A program made the position numbers and the translations under genes. This document shows, piece by piece, positions 14,447 through 30,876 of a DNA stretch of 64,000 bases (its first letter is position 1; every line of letters starts with the position of its first letter). The stretch is from Bacilli bacterium. Lineage in GTDB: Bacteria; Bacillota_I; Bacilli_A; RFN20; CAG-826. The stretch covers positions 224,001-288,000 of the forward strand of contig JAZLKX010000025.1 of assembly GCA_045597865.1 (NCBI GenBank), in the 5' to 3' direction. Under the pieces are notes generated by a model, which worked only from the letters and a program-made list of their open reading frames with translations, did not search any database and was not told the DNA's origin.

Positions 14447-15067
14447 ATGAAAAGAAAAGTTTGTTTTGGGGTTACTTTAATTTTTATTGCAATGTTTGGT
14501 TATTTATTTGGTAAGTTTTTACCAACTTTAATTCAATACATTAAAAACTTAGATATTGGTTCTTATCCTTTAGACGAGTTAATTTTAGTGAGCTATATTG
14601 CTGTTTCATTATGTTCTGCAATTGGATTACTTGTTTCACTTATAACATTAGGAATGTTACTTGCGAACAAAACCAAATTTTTGGATCAATACGGCAGTGT
14701 TTTATTTAACTCAATCGTTTTATGCTATACTCTTACAGAAATTATATCCGGAATATTTTATGCAGTTGAATATGACTTTACAGAAATTTTCAAAAGCGAA
14801 GCAATGATAAGAGTGTTTATTATGTTCGCATTAGGACTTGTTTTAACTTTTGCTGTAAGTGTCAGAAAACAATCAATTGTAAGAACAGGTGTTATTGCAG
14901 TTTCAATTTTAGGAATTTTGGTTATTAATGTTATTAATATGGTAAATATTGATTTCTCTTTTAATGCACTTAAATATTTTCCTGAAACTTCGCACATCTA
15001 TCTCTTTATTATTTTAGCTGGAATATTTGGTGGTGCAATGATGCTCTGGCCAAATGACGAGGAATAA
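14447..15067 (+). CDS. Hypothetical multi-pass membrane protein
   Basis: 206-aa ORF with an AGGAG RBS and about six hydrophobic segments; no recognised motif. Confidence 0.7.
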   Translation: MKRKVCFGVTLIFIAMFGYLFGKFLPTLIQYIKNLDIGSYPLDELILVSYIAVSLCSAIGLLVSLITLGMLLANKTKFLDQYGSVLFNSIVLCYTLTEIISGIFYAVEYDFTEIFKSEAMIRVFIMFALGLVLTFAVSVRKQSIVRTGVIAVSILGILVINVINMVNIDFSFNALKYFPETSHIYLFIILAGIFGGAMMLWPNDEE

Positions 15068-15123: not shown

Positions 15124-16173
15124 TTACTCACCGGCTTCTTGGAACATTCTAAGCAAATCATCAACAGTGAGTTTTGCTTTTTCTTTTCCAGAGATATCGT
15201 GAAGTACGTGACCATGGTGGAACATAATAAGTCTGTCACCATAGGTGAGTGCATCTTTCATGTTATGAGTAATCATTAATGTTGTAAGTTTCTTGGTTCT
15301 TACGATTTTGTCAGTAAGTTCAAGAACTTTCTTTGCAGTCTTTGGATCAAGAGCTGCGGTGTGCTCATCAAGTAAAAGAATCTTTCTATCTCCATTGTAA
15401 TCATGAAGTTTATTTGATAAATCAACTAAAGCTGCAAGTTTTTCTTCTGGAGTAGAAGTTTTTGTTACTTTTCTAGTATGTTCAGCTTTAGCTTCATCAT
15501 AGAATTTACCAGCTTTTTCAGCACATTCTTTCTTCAAAGCTTTAAGCTTGTTTTTAATTTCTTTTTGTTTGGCTTTATCAGTTGTATTTCTGAGTTCAAT
15601 ATTAAGTGGACCAGATGCAACATCAAAGTTCATTTGAATGAATTCTCTTCTTGTGTCAATACGAGAATCATTTGCGGCCATTAACAAAGTTAATGCTTGT
15701 CTTTGTCCGCCGGACATACGACCAACTTTTTGATTTATTCTATCTTCAAGTCCCAAGTCAAATTGCTTAACTTGAGAGATAAAATAATCTTTAACGGTTT
15801 CGCTTGAGAATCCCCATCTAATTGGTGAGTGGTGTTTACCACGTCTATACGCAATTTCGAGGTTTTCAAGAACCGACATTTCTCCGGTGGTACCCATTCT
15901 TGGATCTTGGAAGACTCGACCGAAGTATTTAGCACGTCTAAATTCTTCCATATGAGAGATTGGCATACCAGAAAGTGAGATTTCACCTTCGGTTGGTTTA
16001 TAAGTACCAGCGATTAAGTTCATAGTGGTGGTTTTACCAGAACCATTTGAACCAATAATAGTAACGAATTCACCATCATTAATCTTTAGATTAACATGGT
16101 CTAATGCTACTTTTTTATCTCTTGAATCTCCAGAGAGATTAAAGATTTTGGTTAAATTTGTTAATTCAATCAT
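15124..16173 (-). CDS. ABC transporter ATP-binding protein (TrpXYZ-like aromatic amino-acid importer) with ~90-aa insertion
   Basis: GSNGSGKT, RVFQDP, MSGGQRQALTLLMA, LLLDEHTAALDP and MITH motifs. Confidence 0.9.
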   Translation of the reverse strand: MIELTNLTKIFNLSGDSRDKKVALDHVNLKINDGEFVTIIGSNGSGKTTTMNLIAGTYKPTEGEISLSGMPISHMEEFRRAKYFGRVFQDPRMGTTGEMSVLENLEIAYRRGKHHSPIRWGFSSETVKDYFISQVKQFDLGLEDRINQKVGRMSGGQRQALTLLMAANDSRIDTRREFIQMNFDVASGPLNIELRNTTDKAKQKEIKNKLKALKKECAEKAGKFYDEAKAEHTRKVTKTSTPEEKLAALVDLSNKLHDYNGDRKILLLDEHTAALDPKTAKKVLELTDKIVRTKKLTTLMITHNMKDALTYGDRLIMFHHGHVLHDISGKEKAKLTVDDLLRMFQEAGE

Positions 16174-17157
16174 TTATCTAGCCTCCCCAGGAATATCTTG
16201 TTTAATGCGGAACAACTTTTTAAATTCAGTTTTAATAAGTGGTAAACAAAGAGCAATTGTAATAAGTACTGCGTAGAGTAAGCTCTTAAGTTCAGTTGGT
16301 AAACCAAGTCTTGTTGCAACTGTAACAATTACAAAGTAAATAATTGAACCAAGTGCAACTGAAATAATCCAGTTTTTAAATGAACGTTTACCAAAGATTG
16401 CTTCACCAATAAGAATAGACGCAAGGCCTACAACTAAGTAGCCTGCTGCCGATACTGTTGAAACAGTCTTAACATCTTGAACGTAAAGTGAACCACCAAG
16501 TGCAATTAGTCCGTTTGCTATAGCAACACAGACAATAGTGGAGATATTTGCGTTAATTCCTTGTGAATTTGCCATGTTTTCATTTAATCCTGTAGCACGA
16601 ATAGCCATTCCGTATTCTGTGCCAAAGAAGAAATAAATGCCAAACATCACAACAAGAACAACTCCTAACATAATTGCAACTTTAATAATTTCTGCCCATG
16701 GAGCAATTGGCATCCATCTATTTGCAACATCATTGAATTGCCATGGATAACAAAGTGAGTAAATTGTTTGTTGTTCTCCACCTTTAACTATGTTAGTGAA
16801 TGAAATTGTTGATGCGAAAATGGAACCATTTCCAATTTTTGCTCCCATGATAAGCATTGCAATTGAAGCAGCTGCAGTCATGGTAATAATACCAGACAAC
16901 AATTTTGGTATTTTCAAATAGCGGTTTAAAACGCCTGTAATAATGCCACACAAACATCCACCAAGGAATGCTGCTAAAGTGGCAAGCCAAGGGTTTAAAC
17001 CATTAAAAATCATAACTGCAGAGATGGCTGCTCCAATAAGGAAACTGCCTTCAGCAGTTAAATCAGCAAAATCAAGGATTCTGTATGTAAGGAAAATACC
17101 AAGTGCTAATAAGACACATGGAAGTCCTGAAGATAAAATATTTAATATTATATCCAT
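16174..17157 (-). CDS. ABC transporter permease (BPD_transp_2-like)
   Basis: LDFADLTAEGSF, LLSGI, GMAIRATG and GLASILIGE motifs; highly hydrophobic. Confidence 0.9.
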   Translation of the reverse strand: MDIILNILSSGLPCVLLALGIFLTYRILDFADLTAEGSFLIGAAISAVMIFNGLNPWLATLAAFLGGCLCGIITGVLNRYLKIPKLLSGIITMTAAASIAMLIMGAKIGNGSIFASTISFTNIVKGGEQQTIYSLCYPWQFNDVANRWMPIAPWAEIIKVAIMLGVVLVVMFGIYFFFGTEYGMAIRATGLNENMANSQGINANISTIVCVAIANGLIALGGSLYVQDVKTVSTVSAAGYLVVGLASILIGEAIFGKRSFKNWIISVALGSIIYFVIVTVATRLGLPTELKSLLYAVLITIALCLPLIKTEFKKLFRIKQDIPGEAR

Positions 17158-17171
17158 TTACAAAAACCTAC

Positions 17172-18161
17172 TTATTTTGCGGAGATATCAGTGAAATTTT
17201 TAGTAATTGATTCTGGAAGAGTAATTCCTGAATCTGCTAAGTTAGCGGAAGAATAGACTCTTGAGCAAGTAGAAGCATCCATAAATTTAACTGGGAAATC
17301 AGATGGTTTCTTGCCATTTTTAATGATTTCAACAGCCATCTTACCAGCTTCTTTACCAAGTTGTTTGTAATCAACTGAAATGGTAATGTGGCCGCCATCT
17401 TGAAGCATGCCTTCTTCGCCACAGACAACTAAAACTCCTTTGGAGTTAGCTGCTTGTTTTACATCGTTCATGTGTGCTGCAATGTTATTGTCGGTTGGGA
17501 CATAAATTGCATCAACTTCTTCAGCAAGAGCTAAAGCAGCAGCATTAATATCTGATGGTCCAGAGACTGCTTTTTCTTTAACTGTAACGCCTCTTCCTTC
17601 AACGATAGATTTAACTTGATCCTTTTGAATTACTGAGTTTTCTTCACTTTGTGTGTATAGAACACCAAGTCTTGTTGCAGATGGAAGAATTTGATTGATA
17701 AGTAAAAGTTGTTCAGCAATTGGTTGAGCATCACTTGTACCACAGACAAATCCATTAGTGTTTTCAACACTAGAAACTAAGTTTGCAGAAACTGGATCTG
17801 TAACAGCAGAGAAGAAAACTGGATTTGTAAGTCCTTTTTCAATTGATGCTGACATAAGTTGCTTTGAAGCTCCTGTTCCAAGGCCAAAGGTCATGTCTTT
17901 TGTTGAGACTAAGTCTTTAGCCATTGCTGTTAAGTCTGCATCGTTTCCGCCTGCGTTCTTAATATCAAAGCTATAATCTACACCTTGAACTAAACCAGCT
18001 TCATCTAAAGCTTCTTTAAAACCATTTGCACAAGTTCTAAGTGCAGCGTGTTCAACTGGGAGTAAAACACCGATTTTGCATTTAGCGTTGTCGCCGCATG
18101 ATGCGAGACCTGCCGCAGCAGTTGCCAAAGCAAGTAATGAGATTAATTTTGATTTTTTCAT
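17172..18161 (-). CDS. ABC transporter substrate-binding lipoprotein (ABC_sub_bind/TrpX-like)
   Basis: Lipobox GLASC; EHAAL, SAVTDPV, GTSD and YVPTDN motifs; RBS GAAAGGAG before MKKSK at 18161. Confidence 0.9.
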   Translation of the reverse strand: MKKSKLISLLALATAAAGLASCGDNAKCKIGVLLPVEHAALRTCANGFKEALDEAGLVQGVDYSFDIKNAGGNDADLTAMAKDLVSTKDMTFGLGTGASKQLMSASIEKGLTNPVFFSAVTDPVSANLVSSVENTNGFVCGTSDAQPIAEQLLLINQILPSATRLGVLYTQSEENSVIQKDQVKSIVEGRGVTVKEKAVSGPSDINAAALALAEEVDAIYVPTDNNIAAHMNDVKQAANSKGVLVVCGEEGMLQDGGHITISVDYKQLGKEAGKMAVEIIKNGKKPSDFPVKFMDASTCSRVYSSANLADSGITLPESITKNFTDISAK

Positions 18162-18180
18162 AAAATTTAATACTCCTTTC

Positions 18181-18288
18181 AAAAATAAATCCCGGGAGTG
18201 AACACCGGGCTATCTTTGCTTGGTGTTCAACTTTCGTCTCCCACCAATTATTTTTACAGCAGGAAACAATTACCTATAGTAAAAATAA
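18181..18288 (-). promoter_or_regulatory. Putative attenuator with alternative hairpins
   Basis: 10-bp stem 18279-88/18248-57; UGAACACC/GGUGUUCA plus GGGAG/CUCCC antiterminator-like stem; competing CCCGG/CCGGG hairpin followed by AUUUAUUUUU. Confidence 0.65.
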
Positions 18289-18341
18289 CCAAAGTAAAAA
18301 GCATTGATATTATTGATTTTTGAAACACAATTTTTAATCAT
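18270..18341 (-). CDS. Putative Phe/Tyr attenuator leader peptide MIKNCVSKINNINAFYFGYFYYR (23 aa)
   Basis: Manual translation; SD-like AAGGTAGGAAG upstream; 7 of the 8 codons at positions 15-22 are Phe/Tyr; lies directly 5' of an aromatic amino-acid-type ABC operon. Confidence 0.75.
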   Translation of the reverse strand: MIKNCVSKINNINAFYFGYFYYR

Positions 18342-18427
18342 TTTGCTTCCTACCTTGCGTATATATTAACTTATTTAAAATAAAAGTGTTAGAAAAATTG
18401 AAAAATGTTCGATTGATTATTAGCCTT

Positions 18428-18485
18428 TACTAAATATTTAGTATTTGTTTAAAAAAGTGGTATAATAGTAAACTGTAGGGACTAT
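18428..18485 (+). promoter_or_regulatory. MarR-gene promoter (TG-G-TATAAT at 18458-18466) with candidate operators
   Basis: Perfect 16-bp palindrome TACTAAATATTTAGTA (18428-43) over the -35 position; ATAGT...ACTAT inverted repeat at 18465-85. Confidence 0.5.
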
Positions 18486-18490
18486 CTACT

Positions 18491-18922
18491 ATGGAAAAAG
18501 AGCTTAAAGAGATTAAAATTAACTGGTTCAAAGTCAGTAGTATTTATAATAAACTCGCTGATAGACATTTAGTGAACTTTTTCTCTATGCGTGTTTTCAA
18601 TTTAATTTATATTTTCGAAAATGAATGTACCCAAAAGAAGATCGTTGAATTTACTGGTGCTCCAAAGCAATCAGTTAACAATGTTGTTCAAGATTTTCTT
18701 TCTAAAGGTTACGTAAAATTAGTAGCTAATCCTAAGGATAAAAGATACAAAATTATCAAAGTTACCAAAAAAGGAAAAGAACTATATCAATCAACTCTTT
18801 TAAACATTGAAGATGCTGAATTGAAGGTTTTGTCCAATTTTAGTGATGAAGAAATAAAGTCATTTATTAGTTTTTCGTGGAAGTACAATGAATTGCTCGA
18901 GAAGGAAGTTGAGAAGATTTAA
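18491..18922 (+). CDS. MarR family transcriptional regulator
   Basis: CTQKKI...PKQSVNNVV helix-turn-helix and DKRYKIIKVTKKG wing. Confidence 0.9.
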   Translation: MEKELKEIKINWFKVSSIYNKLADRHLVNFFSMRVFNLIYIFENECTQKKIVEFTGAPKQSVNNVVQDFLSKGYVKLVANPKDKRYKIIKVTKKGKELYQSTLLNIEDAELKVLSNFSDEEIKSFISFSWKYNELLEKEVEKI

Positions 18923-18923
18923 T

Positions 18924-21900
18924 ATGAAGAAGTTTTCTAAGATTTTAATTTTGTTAACACCATTAGTTTTATCTAGTTGTGATTTTAATTTTAGCCAATT
19001 AACTGAAAAGAACTTAGTATTTTCTGATCCAATGGCTTTCCAATATAGAGTTGGTGATGTTTTTGATGATTTTGTCGAAAATGGTGGACTTAATGTTGAC
19101 GTTAAAATGTCTGATGATTCCATTAAGGAATTAAATAAAGAAGAATTTAGATACACTATAAAGGATTCAAATGGTAATTTTATTACCCCTACAAGAGCCT
19201 TTACTAAAGAAGGAGATTATACAGTCTCTGTAACAAGAAATATGTTAGAACCAATTTCTGAATCTATCAGTGTTGGAAAGAAATTATCTGGTGTAGTTTT
19301 AACAAGCATTTCTGCATCTGGCTACACAAATACAGTTTCTCAAGGTGATAGCTATAGTTATGATGGTGTTGTTACCGCCACTTATAGTGATGGCACAACA
19401 AAAGATGTAACATTATTAGCAGATAAAGGCAGCATTTCGACCGCAAACATAGGTATTGAAACAGGACTTATTTCATACACTGAAGATGAGATTACTAAAA
19501 CAACTCAATATTCAGTTGAAGTAACAGAAAAAGCACCAGAATATGAAACAATCACAGTTGATGAAGCTGTCGCAATTATTGATGGATTAACTCAAAACGT
19601 TGTTAGCGACCAAGAATATTACGTTAAAGGCGTTGTAACCGGTGTTGAAAAAGACCAAAATGGCTTTAATGGTAGTTTCTTAAATTCAAATCTTAAATTT
19701 AGATCAATTAAAGAAAATGGTGTTGCTAATACCGTTGATGAAATTGATGGTAAAGAAGTTATCATTTTTGGTTATTTAGAAAATTATAATGGAATTTATC
19801 AAATTCCTTATTTACCAGTTTCCGCATCTCCTACAGGTCAAAAATATAATGGTAAGTTAATCTGGGTTGAATCAAGCGGAAGCGAAGAGACTATTGATGT
19901 TACTAACGTTTCAATTTCACCAATTAACAAGACATTAAAAGTTAATGAAACTTACACTTTATCCGCTAAAGTTTTGCCAGAAAACGCAACTGATAAGTCA
20001 ATCACATGGAGTTCAAGTGACTCAAGTGTTTGTTCAGTTACTAGCGCTGGCGTTATTAAAGGTCTTAAGACTGGTAATGCAATAATTACTGCAACTACAA
20101 GTAATAACTTGACAGCAGAATGTTCCGTTACGGTAATCAGTGGTGGATCAACTCCAATTGAGGGTAATAAATATGAAATTGCCTTCAATAAGTATGAAGT
20201 TGATGGCCAAACAGAACTTAACATTTCGACTGTTTATGACCAAATTACAGCTGGTGCAGATAATATTTCATCATTTACATATGTTTCTAAGATTTATAAA
20301 GGAACTGATGGTTTAAAATTTGGTTCTAATAGATCTGGTGGACAAATAACATTTGATTTATCAAATGAAATTAGTTCAATTGAATGCTCTCAGATCATTG
20401 TTGATGTTTCTCAATATGGCACAACCTCCACAACAATAAATGTTTCTGCAGATGATAGTTTAATTGTTTCTGGATCATCTGCTGATTCACAAATTATTGG
20501 AACACTTTCAAAACCAAAAGAAATTAGTGAAATTTCAATTAGAACATCAGCTAGAGCTTATGTATCTAAAGTTACTTTAGTATGTGCTGAAATTGAAGAA
20601 ATTCCTGTTACAAGCATCTCAATTCCAAGCTCTAAAACAATCTCAATTGGTAATAGTGAACAACTTACAGTTACATACACACCTAGTAACGCAAATACAG
20701 GCAAGAAAATTACCTGGACTTCAAACAAAACTAGTGTTGCTACAGTTGAAGATGGATTAGTTAGAGGAATTGCTGCAGGAACTGCTACAATTACTGCCAC
20801 ATCAGAGGGTGGTTATACCTCAACTTGTTCTGTTACAGTTAACGAAGTTGCAGTTACAAGCGTTTCAGTTTCTCCAACATCACAAACTATGTCTGTTGGT
20901 TCAACAAAACAACTTACAGCAACTATTTCTCCAAGCAACGCTTCAAATAAAACTCTTACTTGGAGTTCATCTAAACCAACTGTTGCTTCAGTAAGTTCTG
21001 ATGGCCTTGTAACAGCTAATGCTGTTGGTAGTGCAACAATTACCGTAAAATCAAATAATAACAAGACTGCAACATGCTCAATTACCGTTGAAGAATCAAC
21101 TAAAGATGCATGGACAATTCTTATTTATATGTGTGGTGCTGATCTTGAGTCAGAATCAGGCTTAGCAACCAGTGACATTAAGGAAATTCTTTCCGTCTCA
21201 AATCAACCAAGCGATGTTAATATTGTTATTGAAACTGGTGGCGCAAAATCATGGTCACTTTCAAGCACATATTTAAGCGGTGCTACTAAGATTGATTCTT
21301 CTAAACTTTCAAGATGGCACGTTGCTAATAAAAAACTTGTTTTTGATGAATCATTAACGTATGCATCTATGGGCGCAAGTTCAACACTCCAATCATTCGT
21401 TGAATACGGAATTAGAGAATATCCAGCAGAAAAAACTGGTGTCATTTTCTGGAACCATGGCGGTGCAATGTATGGTTGTTGTTACGACGAAAAGAAGAAC
21501 GATGATTCACTTGTAAATAGTGAGATGAAAGAAGCCTTCTCAAACGCTCTTTTTAATACCGGTTCAAGTAAACTTGAATTTGTTGGATATGATACATGTT
21601 TAACACAAGTTCAAGACATTGCAGAATTCAACTCAAATTATTTCAATTACATGATTGCTTCTGAGGAAGCTGAAGCCGGTGAAGGATGGGACTATGATAC
21701 ATGGGTTGATGACCTTTATGCAAAGAAAGAAACAAGCACAATTTTAACTGCAATTGTTGATGGATTTATTACCGATAATGGCGGCGCAAGTTCAACTCGT
21801 TCAGATCAAACATTATCATGGCTTGATTTAACAGCTATGCCAGCGTATAAAACTGCATTTGAAAACTTTGCTTCTGCTTTAAAAACTAAGTTATCTAATA

Positions 21901-22259
21901 GCGGTGTAAGCAAATCAACATTTGCATCTTGGATGAGCAAAAATGTTAAGGCATTCTGTACTGACTCTGATGAAGATGAAAAATACTATTGTCTATTCGA
22001 TGTCAAAGACATGATCAATGATTTATCAAGCAGTTCATATAATCCTGGTTCAAGTTATTTAGATGCAGTTGATTCTGCCTTCTCAAATTTAGTTAAGTAT
22101 AGTGTTGCTCAAAAGGGTGCTGGAAACGCTTATGGATTAGGTTGTATTTATTGCCAAGCTTCAACGTATAGCAGTTATATTAAGAGTGCTTATACAGCAG
22201 GCGAAACCAACTTCTCGAACTGGTTAAGTTTCTGCAAAACATACAGCTATTTAGCATAA
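18924..22259 (+). CDS. Surface lipoprotein with bacterial Ig-like repeats and C-terminal clostripain (peptidase C11) domain
   Basis: MKKFSK...LVLSSC lipobox (start 18924); Big_2-type repeats (PENATDKSITWSSSD...G.A.ITAT); WTILIYMCGADLES, FWNHGG (His) and YDTCL (Cys). Confidence 0.88.
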   Translation: MKKFSKILILLTPLVLSSCDFNFSQLTEKNLVFSDPMAFQYRVGDVFDDFVENGGLNVDVKMSDDSIKELNKEEFRYTIKDSNGNFITPTRAFTKEGDYTVSVTRNMLEPISESISVGKKLSGVVLTSISASGYTNTVSQGDSYSYDGVVTATYSDGTTKDVTLLADKGSISTANIGIETGLISYTEDEITKTTQYSVEVTEKAPEYETITVDEAVAIIDGLTQNVVSDQEYYVKGVVTGVEKDQNGFNGSFLNSNLKFRSIKENGVANTVDEIDGKEVIIFGYLENYNGIYQIPYLPVSASPTGQKYNGKLIWVESSGSEETIDVTNVSISPINKTLKVNETYTLSAKVLPENATDKSITWSSSDSSVCSVTSAGVIKGLKTGNAIITATTSNNLTAECSVTVISGGSTPIEGNKYEIAFNKYEVDGQTELNISTVYDQITAGADNISSFTYVSKIYKGTDGLKFGSNRSGGQITFDLSNEISSIECSQIIVDVSQYGTTSTTINVSADDSLIVSGSSADSQIIGTLSKPKEISEISIRTSARAYVSKVTLVCAEIEEIPVTSISIPSSKTISIGNSEQLTVTYTPSNANTGKKITWTSNKTSVATVEDGLVRGIAAGTATITATSEGGYTSTCSVTVNEVAVTSVSVSPTSQTMSVGSTKQLTATISPSNASNKTLTWSSSKPTVASVSSDGLVTANAVGSATITVKSNNNKTATCSITVEESTKDAWTILIYMCGADLESESGLATSDIKEILSVSNQPSDVNIVIETGGAKSWSLSSTYLSGATKIDSSKLSRWHVANKKLVFDESLTYASMGASSTLQSFVEYGIREYPAEKTGVIFWNHGGAMYGCCYDEKKNDDSLVNSEMKEAFSNALFNTGSSKLEFVGYDTCLTQVQDIAEFNSNYFNYMIASEEAEAGEGWDYDTWVDDLYAKKETSTILTAIVDGFITDNGGASSTRSDQTLSWLDLTAMPAYKTAFENFASALKTKLSNSGVSKSTFASWMSKNVKAFCTDSDEDEKYYCLFDVKDMINDLSSSSYNPGSSYLDAVDSAFSNLVKYSVAQKGAGNAYGLGCIYCQASTYSSYIKSAYTAGETNFSNWLSFCKTYSYLA

Positions 22260-30708: not shown

Positions 30709-30714
30709 ATTAAC

Positions 30715-30876
30715 ACTCCAGTTAGGGAAATTTGCCACTTCCTTAGGAGTCGATGATGAATCGACGTAGCTCTGCGTTAAAGAACATTAATAAAGTGCAA
30801 TACAAAGTATTGAATTAGGATGGTACCACGACAAAAGTCGCTCCTAAGAGATACTTTTTTATTTTGTTTAAGGAGG
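30715..30876 (+). ncRNA. T-box riboswitch (Ala) upstream of alaS
   Basis: T-box AATTAGGATGGTACCACG with UGGUACC bulge at 30821-27 in UAGGA/UCCUA + CGAC/GUCG antiterminator; stem III CAATAC/GTATTG; GCGTTA stem IIA/B-like motif; candidate GCC specifier at 30734-36. Confidence 0.85.

Follow-up and report, generated by a model that had tools for sequence, protein, structure and literature searches.

A candidate Tyr/Phe-responsive leader-peptide attenuator upstream of an aromatic amino-acid importer in uncultured Bacilli

Results

A Tyr- and Phe-rich leader peptide precedes an ABC importer operon

In a 64,000-nt stretch of the genome of a Bacilli bacterium (assembly GCA_045597865.1, contig JAZLKX010000025.1; hereafter the window, in whose coordinates all positions are given), a three-gene operon for a putative aromatic amino-acid importer of the ATP-binding cassette (ABC) type is preceded by a leader that we interpret, with a probability of roughly 80%, as a ribosome-mediated leader-peptide transcription attenuator, through which the importer would respond to the levels of charged tRNA-Tyr and tRNA-Phe. 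The leader lies in the gap of 329 bp that separates the gene for the substrate-binding protein from a divergent MarR-family gene (18491–18922, plus strand), and this gap holds a minus-strand upstream open reading frame (uORF) of 23 codons. The elements of the leader, their conservation, the covariation of four helices, the coding signature of the uORF and the Tyr-type residues in the pocket of the binding protein are direct or comparative observations. A ribosome-stalling attenuator for Tyr and Phe had been proposed in an initial annotation, and is supported in silico by conservation, by the three-base periodicity of the uORF, by covariation of the terminator and the antiterminator, and by folding with the ribosome footprint masked.

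The uORF (18270–18341, minus strand; MIKNCVSKINNINAFYFGYFYYR) starts with ATG at 18341, ends with TAA at 18272–18270 and has its own Shine-Dalgarno (SD) sequence, AGGAAG (18346–18351, minus strand), 4 nt upstream of the start codon. As first described, three Phe and four Tyr codons fall within eight codons, FYFGYFYY (18276–18299, minus strand), which we propose, from the sequence and from codon statistics, as the site of ribosome stalling.

Conservation and distribution of the leader

A search among relatives with the binding protein gave a match in 24 of 41 genomes, and the 450 nt upstream were inspected. Twenty of the 26 loci fetched were usable; L013, L021 and L023–L026 were left out as partial, split or at a contig end. 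The initial annotation had suggested looking for conserved Phe/Tyr-rich uORFs upstream of orthologous binding-protein genes, and a uORF with at least seven Phe or Tyr codons in eight is indeed found in 17 of these 20 loci, the three leaderless ones (L017, L018 and L022) being paralogues with 29–31% identity. A further 80 loci came from a scan in which each prokaryote species was represented by one genome; dropping L057 and L100, for which upstream sequence was lacking, left 78. Here a uORF with at least six Phe or Tyr codons in eight precedes the gene in 43 loci, and the remaining 35 have at most five. The 43 belong to metagenome-assembled genomes labelled Bacilli, Erysipelotrichaceae, Acholeplasmatales and similar, mainly from rumen and horse faeces, and the 35 mainly to Lachnospiraceae, Ruminiclostridium, Streptococcus and others. 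Once duplicates (among them L002, a repeat of L027, and L008, a repeat of L006) and the three leaderless loci had been removed, 50 non-redundant leaders remained, spanning several families of the order.

For a search independent of the downstream gene, a covariance model was built from 15 leaders, reaching from the control codons to the U-tract (121 positions, 11 pairs). Under the stricter filters, 8 of the 151 family genomes gave a match, one each, and in the window's own genome it found this locus only; neither the model nor a scan for Phe/Tyr runs located a second copy of the leader there. All six new matches carry a Tyr/Phe-rich uORF, with a gene for a PF04392 lipoprotein 13–20 nt downstream (6/6). 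Of 30 DAHP synthase loci examined in the order, none carries a Tyr/Phe-rich uORF, and no match to DAHP synthase (PF00793) was found in the window's genome. Two of the DAHP synthase loci from the same order, L117 and L119, have short uORFs, MFFCWKRIFKLW and MFFLWKRIFKL, ~340 nt upstream of the gene, which may be of the Phe-containing uORFC-13-1 type of Acholeplasma and distinct from the Tyr/Phe leaders.

At three loci of the same genus (L016, L019 and L020, in genomes G008, G007 and G015, respectively), the leader precedes a binding protein just 29–31% identical to that of the window. The L016 leader is nearly identical in nucleotide sequence to 18162–18360 of the window. With a distant paralogue as the downstream gene, the leader itself seems either to have been kept at its site or to have moved. 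The loci L017, L018 and L022, which are without a leader, hold further copies of this paralogue.

Coding signature of the uORF

The leader peptides are 13–36 residues long (median 21), with unrelated N-termini, so that the Tyr/Phe run alone is kept. In the eight-codon runs of the 50 leaders, TAT occurs 155 times, TTT 94, TAC 83 and TTC 23, both synonymous pairs thus being in use, and C is almost confined to the third codon position (128 of 143 cases, with 6 at the first position and 9 at the second). Such three-base periodicity is expected from selection on Tyr/Phe codons, but not from selection on an RNA motif. Over all 1025 residues of the 50 peptides, 410 are Phe or Tyr and none is Trp. The dual sensing of Phe and Tyr that had initially been suggested fits the use of both codons, each leader having at least three Tyr and at least one Phe, but the two are not equal: Tyr dominates with 255 residues compared to 155 for Phe. 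One extra leader, found by the RNA model, has six Tyr and zero Phe.

We also determined how often such runs occur in all six frames of the 1.74-Mb genome, which yielded 23 stop-to-stop frames with at least seven Phe or Tyr in eight codons, the majority of them poly-T frames. The script scored Phe/Tyr content only; by reading of the peptides and their coordinates, the uORF of the window alone combines an ATG start, alternating Phe and Tyr, and an operon downstream. Contig C46 carries 12 of the 23 frames and may be compositionally odd or foreign. Another frame, FYFYFSFF at C8:13835 (minus strand), is without an ATG.

The residues after the run recur within groups of leaders. In the window's subgroup the peptide ends in Arg before the stop codon (AGG TAA or AGG TGA), and in a second subgroup (L006, L035, L038, L039, L042, L049, L050, L071 and others) the run is followed by PR(D/G)N(Q/R) and the stop codon. 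The codons for these recurrent C-terminal residues overlap predicted helices, and the residues could hint at a role of the peptide itself, which is weighed below.

Four overlapping helices covary in the leader RNA

The 199-nt leader has a minimum free energy (MFE) of -54.8 kcal/mol (z = -4.67), and none of 200 shuffled sequences folded as well. The 10-bp stem, the antiterminator helix, GGGAG/CTCCC, and CCCGG/CCGGG with its U-tract, all listed in the initial annotation, are each present on the minus strand as described. Covariation was counted in 15 aligned leaders of the window's subgroup (mean column identity 60%), with controls in which the pairing partners were slid by 1–3 columns; in these controls, pairing falls to 39–56% for all four helices considered below, which are on the minus strand, as are all elements of the leader.

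The first helix involves the post-stop segment, TTGTTTCCTGCTG (18257–18269), which begins right after the TAA and is, as read from masked MFE folding, inside the footprint of a terminating ribosome. When free, it would pair with TGGTGGGAGACGA (18234–18246), a stretch shared in part with the 5' arm of the anti-antiterminator and with the GGGAG by which the antiterminator can be extended. Its 12 pairs are 95.3% paired, with two changed on both sides and slid controls at 45–52%. The second helix is the anti-antiterminator hairpin P3 (18220–18247), TTGGTG (18247–18242) with CACCAA (18225–18220), recognised from covariation and from the MFE structure with the ribosome at the stop codon; its six pairs are likewise 95.3% paired, three being changed on both sides. 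The antiterminator (18194–18229) is formed by TGAACACC (18229–18222) and GGTGTTCA (18206–18199), with eight pairs, 94.1% paired and four changed on both sides. It can be extended by GGGAG (18242–18238) and CTCCC (18198–18194), for which the GGGA/TCCC pairs are 94.4% paired with zero changed on both sides. Finally, the intrinsic terminator (18181–18209) consists of CCCGG (18209–18205) and CCGGG (18195–18191) around a 9-nt loop, followed by ATTTATTTTT (18190–18181); its five pairs are 93.3% paired, two of them changed on both sides. With our own script, a hairpin and U-tract was found 20–61 nt before the ATG of the binding-protein gene in all 50 leaders. A consensus terminator scan missed the minus-strand terminator because its 9-nt loop exceeds the limit of 8 in the tool, and called the antiterminator helix, as read on the plus strand, instead. 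Since the four helices overlap pairwise, they make up a relay of two choices: post-stop helix or anti-antiterminator, and antiterminator or terminator.

The link between the stalled ribosome and this decision differs from that first envisaged. It does not lie mainly in the 10-bp stem and in A-tract:U-tract pairing, which are 77–78% paired without convincing compensation, and points instead to competition of the post-stop helix with TTGGTG/CACCAA, a pairing that had gone unnoticed. The 10-bp stem, hairpin a:a' (18248–18288; TTATTTTTAC, 18288–18279, with GTAAAAATAA, 18257–18248), encloses the stop codon and the post-stop segment in the MFE structure. It is 77.8% paired in the 15 leaders, with zero pairs changed on both sides, and is possibly a pause hairpin or a hairpin formed when translation does not occur. 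The A-tract:U-tract extension (77.1% paired) can form only once the U-tract has been transcribed and is unlikely to be part of the decision. An SD-sequestering helix in the MFE structure, AAGGTAGGAAGC/GCTTTTTACTTT, is 72% paired in the relatives compared to 50–63% in slid controls and was not relied on.

Ribosome position and the fold of the leader

Masked folding, another check that the initial annotation had put forward, was run at equilibrium on the leader up to the end of the terminator stem, with 27 nt held unpaired (A site -15 to +11). The outcome for the window follows the expectation, antiterminated when the ribosome is stalled and terminated when it is at the stop codon: the mean probability of the terminator pairs is 0.00–0.10 with the A site on Phe/Tyr codons and rises to 0.64 when the stop codon occupies the A site. 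The MFE structure contains the 13-bp post-stop helix and the antiterminator when the ribosome is stalled at codons 17–22, and the anti-antiterminator and the terminator when it is at the stop codon. Across the 50 leaders, the terminator has a median probability of 0.27 for the stalled ribosome and of 0.74 for the ribosome that has reached the stop codon. The expected switch (stalled lower by at least 0.2) occurs in 20 leaders, the reverse in one, and the two states are within 0.2 of each other in 29; on this modelling, masked folding across the leaders gives the direction rather than proof.

Under the mechanism that we propose, for which we infer translation of the uORF, its coupling to transcription and a response to starvation, a ribosome would translate the 23-codon leader while the downstream leader is being transcribed. 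With Tyr-tRNA or Phe-tRNA scarce, it would stall in FYFGYFYY (18299–18276) and leave the post-stop segment (18269–18257) bare, to pair with TGGTGGGAGACGA (18246–18234) and block the TTGGTG/CACCAA anti-antiterminator. The freed TGAACACC would then pair with GGTGTTCA to form the antiterminator, disrupting CCCGG/CCGGG and allowing readthrough into the three genes. With both amino acids plentiful, the ribosome would reach the TAA and cover the post-stop segment, upon which the anti-antiterminator and then the terminator would form, and transcription would end at the U-tract (18190–18181).

The importer probably carries Tyr and Phe

The substrate-binding lipoprotein (17172–18161, minus strand; 329 residues) is a CD0873-like member of PF04392 (Pfam E-value 1.9e-58; 198.5 bits, cut-off 25.9). 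Its translation would start at the ATG at 18161, behind an SD sequence at 18179–18173. The closest matches in PDB are 3lft (3.6e-42), 6hni (5.1e-39) and 3lkv (1.4e-34), for which Bradshaw et al. 2019 (PMC6816091) give Trp, Tyr and Phe as the respective ligands. The same paper describes Glu-263 of CD0873 as bonding the Tyr hydroxyl, with Ala in its place in the other two proteins, and Tyr-279 as blocking Trp, with Gln in the Trp binder. In HMMER alignments, Glu249 and Tyr265 of the window protein align with these two residues, where 3lft has Ala and Gln, and 3lkv has Ala and Tyr. The protein did not qualify as a TrpX orthologue by the NCBI criterion (NF041285, 235.5 bits against a cut-off of 390).

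The Glu and Tyr pair recurs in 64 of 66 leader-linked rows, a count that includes genomes fetched twice, with L015 (Ala) and L145 (Cys) as exceptions, and the second position is Tyr in every row of any class. Glu249 was considered as a discriminator between Tyr and Phe and rejected, as five homologues with a Phe-type T-box also have Glu. Because these T-box homologues share both Glu and Tyr, the pocket argues against Trp, yet cannot separate Tyr from Phe. An ambiguous pocket of this kind fits the mixed Tyr/Phe leader, and the assignment of Tyr/Phe rather than Trp as the cargo, already suggested from the leader peptide, is supported by these CD0873 Tyr-type residues.

In the window's genome (1.74 Mb, 35.3% G+C, 96.9% complete), we found zero matches to chorismate synthase, prephenate dehydratase and prephenate dehydrogenase, all of which were matched in each of the 14 control genomes. 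Since these enzymes of the aromatic pathway were not found in a genome of such completeness, import is probably the sole source of Tyr and Phe.

T-boxes at homologous transporters and elsewhere in the genome

Rfam searches of the leader at permissive thresholds returned chance-level matches only (best 20.5 bits against a cut-off of 88), and no T-box (RF00230) was found in 17900–18800 even at E-values up to 10. Likewise, none of the 20 related leader loci has a cis-regulatory Rfam match, and T-boxes are absent among them. The leu/phe leader RNA of Lactococcus, RF01743, resembles the window element as a leader-peptide element of Bacillota and gives a full-length alignment over 18181–18344, but the alignment is sub-threshold (17.6 bits compared to a gathering score of 70; E = 1.3–4.6) and membership was rejected.

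The T-box family itself has four matches over the cut-off elsewhere in the same genome. One of them lies before pheS, and the other three lie before genes for synthetases that we read as IleS and ValS (both class I, of the I/L/M/V family) and ThrS (class II). At homologous binding-protein loci without the leader, T-boxes were detected in 5 of the 20 scanned, in Clostridia. Their specifier region reads GAAUUC[A/G], as in the pheS T-box of the window's genome, and we therefore take them as Phe T-boxes. The specifier assignment, made from our own alignment, points to Phe regulation at these homologous (34–37% identical) transporters.

A T-box match below the cut-off (51.3 bits compared to 93) lies at ~30712–30848 (plus strand) of the window, 35 nt upstream of a gene for alanyl-tRNA synthetase (PF01411, ORF at ~30884). 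At five loci (L003, L004, L005, L009 and L019), a T-box-like sequence in divergent orientation adjoins the leader on its upstream side; the reverse complement of this sequence contains GGATGGTACCGCG. The divergent gene starts with MKKLTGQE, an organisation that resembles the alaS arrangement in the window's genome. The equivalent locus L029 shows no T-box at the Rfam gathering score.

Evidence against the attenuator and alternative explanations

Several observations weigh against a ribosome-mediated attenuator. A consensus scan located no convincing minus-strand promoter upstream of the uORF. Two sets of metatranscriptomic RNA contigs gave only fragments of relatives (93–99% likeness), from the permease/ATPase end of the operon, and one 34-nt piece from the beginning of the binding-protein gene, and two raw-read metatranscriptome runs yielded zero reads. 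A strict SD core precedes the uORF in only 25 of the 50 related leaders. The terminator is modest, with five G-C pairs and the 9-nt loop that let it escape the consensus scan. In the post-stop helix, few pairs are changed on both sides and 5 of 12 are invariant, so that its conservation could be due to something other than pairing. The aligned sequences are related, which inflates the support from the shuffle statistics and from the Wilcoxon test. In masked folding, 29 of the 50 leaders show no clear difference and just 20 the expected switch. Furthermore, the window RNA truncated at the terminator stem is antiterminated in the absence of a ribosome (terminator probability 0.02), which differs from the 'superattenuation' without translation of the classical attenuators; the full-length ribosome-free fold does contain the terminator.

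Among the alternatives, the one that survives best is a switch that relies on RNA only or on a protein, such as a degenerate T-box, a riboswitch of unknown class or a site at which an RNA-binding protein acts on the terminator and antiterminator, with the uORF being incidental to U/A-rich RNA. The near-invariance of GGTGGGAGAC and of the GTTTCC block is what a ligand or protein site would show, T-boxes are in use elsewhere in the same organism, and the scarcity of strict SD cores mentioned above points in the same direction. These conserved blocks are, however, accounted for by covarying alternative pairings, and the Rfam searches revealed neither a significant family nor a T-box in the leader or its relatives. 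The strict periodicity of the run also speaks against such a switch, as do the in-frame ATG and a stop codon whose short spacing to the post-stop helix is constant among divergent sequences, and we consider an RNA- or protein-only switch improbable.

A second possibility is that the product of the uORF matters, either because free Tyr or Phe arrests the nascent peptide or because the product is a functional hydrophobic micropeptide, charged tRNA not being the signal. The TnaC nascent peptide arrests the ribosome in response to Trp, and the C-terminal residues of the leaders do recur (Arg-stop in the window's group; PRDNQ-stop or PRGNR-stop in another). A possible explanation of the recurrence is that the codons overlap helices, for example, AGG/CCT and CCAAGA/TCTTGG. 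In addition, the run is conserved in composition only and not in order or length, the peptides otherwise varying as described above, and a terminator and a covarying antiterminator stand between the uORF and the gene, making a role of the product itself very improbable in our estimation.

The remaining explanation, a chance frame in AT-rich intergenic DNA next to hairpins that either serve the divergent MarR gene as a bidirectional terminator or form constitutively, could appeal to the 23 Phe/Tyr-rich frames of a 35% G+C genome and to the lack of usable transcript reads for the leader from the runs examined, but is disfavoured by the comparative data and highly implausible, because the MarR gene is transcribed away from the leader, which therefore cannot be its terminator, and because the same type of uORF and architecture recurs in 50 leaders from several families, though identity averages just 60% (15 leaders), and is absent from the 35 of 78 loci that belong to other lineages.

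The operon and neighbouring genes

Downstream of the binding-protein gene, the operon continues with an ABC permease (16174–17157, minus strand; 327 residues; BPD_transp_2, Pfam E-value 8.5e-26) and ends with an ABC ATPase (15124–16173, minus strand; 349 residues; ABC_tran, 8.9e-23), the gene order being binding protein, permease, ATPase. The next ORF (14447–15067) is on the plus strand. NCBIfam ATPase models match the ATPase in two stretches, about residues 2–166 and 263–331, a pattern that suggests an insertion of ~100 residues inside the nucleotide-binding domain. On the other side of the leader, the MarR gene overlaps by 35 nt the start of a gene at 18888–22259 (plus strand), the product of which (1123 residues) combines three Big_2 domains with one domain of the clostripain family (Peptidase_C11).

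Discussion

The initial annotation had considered leader-peptide attenuators unusual in Bacillota, a view that does not hold in light of the precedents described in PMC2965389, PMC9413887 and PMC8632094. Among the reported cases are leader peptides for His in the Bacillus cereus group (PMC2965389) and, in Peptostreptococcaceae and Erysipelotrichales, His attenuators (PMC9413887). An attenuator peptide rich in Leu is reported from S. aureus (PMC5794164), and uORFC-13-1 is a predicted uORF attenuator of Acholeplasma that Brewer et al. 2021 (PMC8632094) describe as occurring only upstream of aroF. As summarised in PMC11802643, aromatic leader peptides sense Trp or Phe, and their targets are biosynthesis or tRNA synthetases. 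In open-access PMC and bioRxiv, we found no report of a Tyr-rich leader peptide or of a leader peptide before this transporter family; Phe, Tyr and Lactococcus are unmentioned in the main text of Naville & Gautheret 2010.

The classical pheL/pheA and pheM/pheST systems of E. coli, as described in PMC11802643, share with the window element a short uORF with a cluster of aromatic codons, a mutually exclusive terminator and antiterminator, and readthrough upon stalling. They differ in that their leaders, as presented there, have Phe codons only, target biosynthesis or a synthetase and belong to Proteobacteria, whereas the window leader is dominated by Tyr, precedes an ABC importer in a member of Bacilli with a reduced genome and would act through a four-helix relay involving the post-stop segment. 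No sequence similarity links them, as judged from the lack of an Rfam match. AroR, a Phe-Tyr-Phe leader before aroF in Corynebacterium glutamicum (Neshat et al. 2014, as summarised in PMC11802643) that is reported to respond to Phe and not to Tyr, also combines mixed Phe/Tyr codons with ribosome-mediated attenuation. By that account, it has three aromatic codons and controls a biosynthetic operon in Actinobacteria, compared to seven aromatic codons in eight upstream of an importer in the window and 3–9 Tyr per leader in its relatives. The uORFC-13-1 element of Acholeplasma, a related Mollicutes-like lineage, resembles the window element in having a Phe-codon uORF and a terminator and in its connection to aromatic amino acids; going by its published description, it is set apart by its position before aroF and by a U-run coding for at least one Phe, the window element preceding an ABC binding protein. 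Importers of the TrpX/CD0873 family controlled by T-boxes, such as S. suis trpXYZ (PMC9382623), have a homologous PF04392 transporter and the same logic, in which uncharged tRNA leads to antitermination and import. In that description, the sensor is a T-box RNA reading the tRNA directly, as opposed to the translating ribosome that we propose for the window.

On balance, we lean towards regarding these leaders as the first described Tyr-dominated family of leader-peptide attenuators and the first dedicated to an aromatic amino-acid importer, one that would have replaced the T-box at a homologous transporter in aromatic-auxotrophic gut Bacilli with reduced genomes and would operate by a four-helix relay, the post-stop segment being masked by the terminating ribosome. 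In such an organism, Phe would be read by the pheS T-box, and Tyr together with Phe by the ribosome at the importer.

If confirmed, the attenuator would add Tyr to the amino acids sensed by leader-peptide attenuation and an uptake system to the targets of such attenuation. It would also represent a case of sensor replacement, with T-boxes at the clostridial homologues and a leader peptide in this lineage. An entry for an RNA family could be founded on the 50 leaders together with the covariance model, so that the intergenic regions concerned would no longer be left blank or annotated as 'hypothetical small proteins'. Judging from their gene content, these uncultured Bacilli appear unable to make aromatic amino acids, and our results support the annotation of a widespread, poorly annotated transporter of uncultured rumen and hindgut Bacilli as an importer of Tyr/Phe, not Trp.

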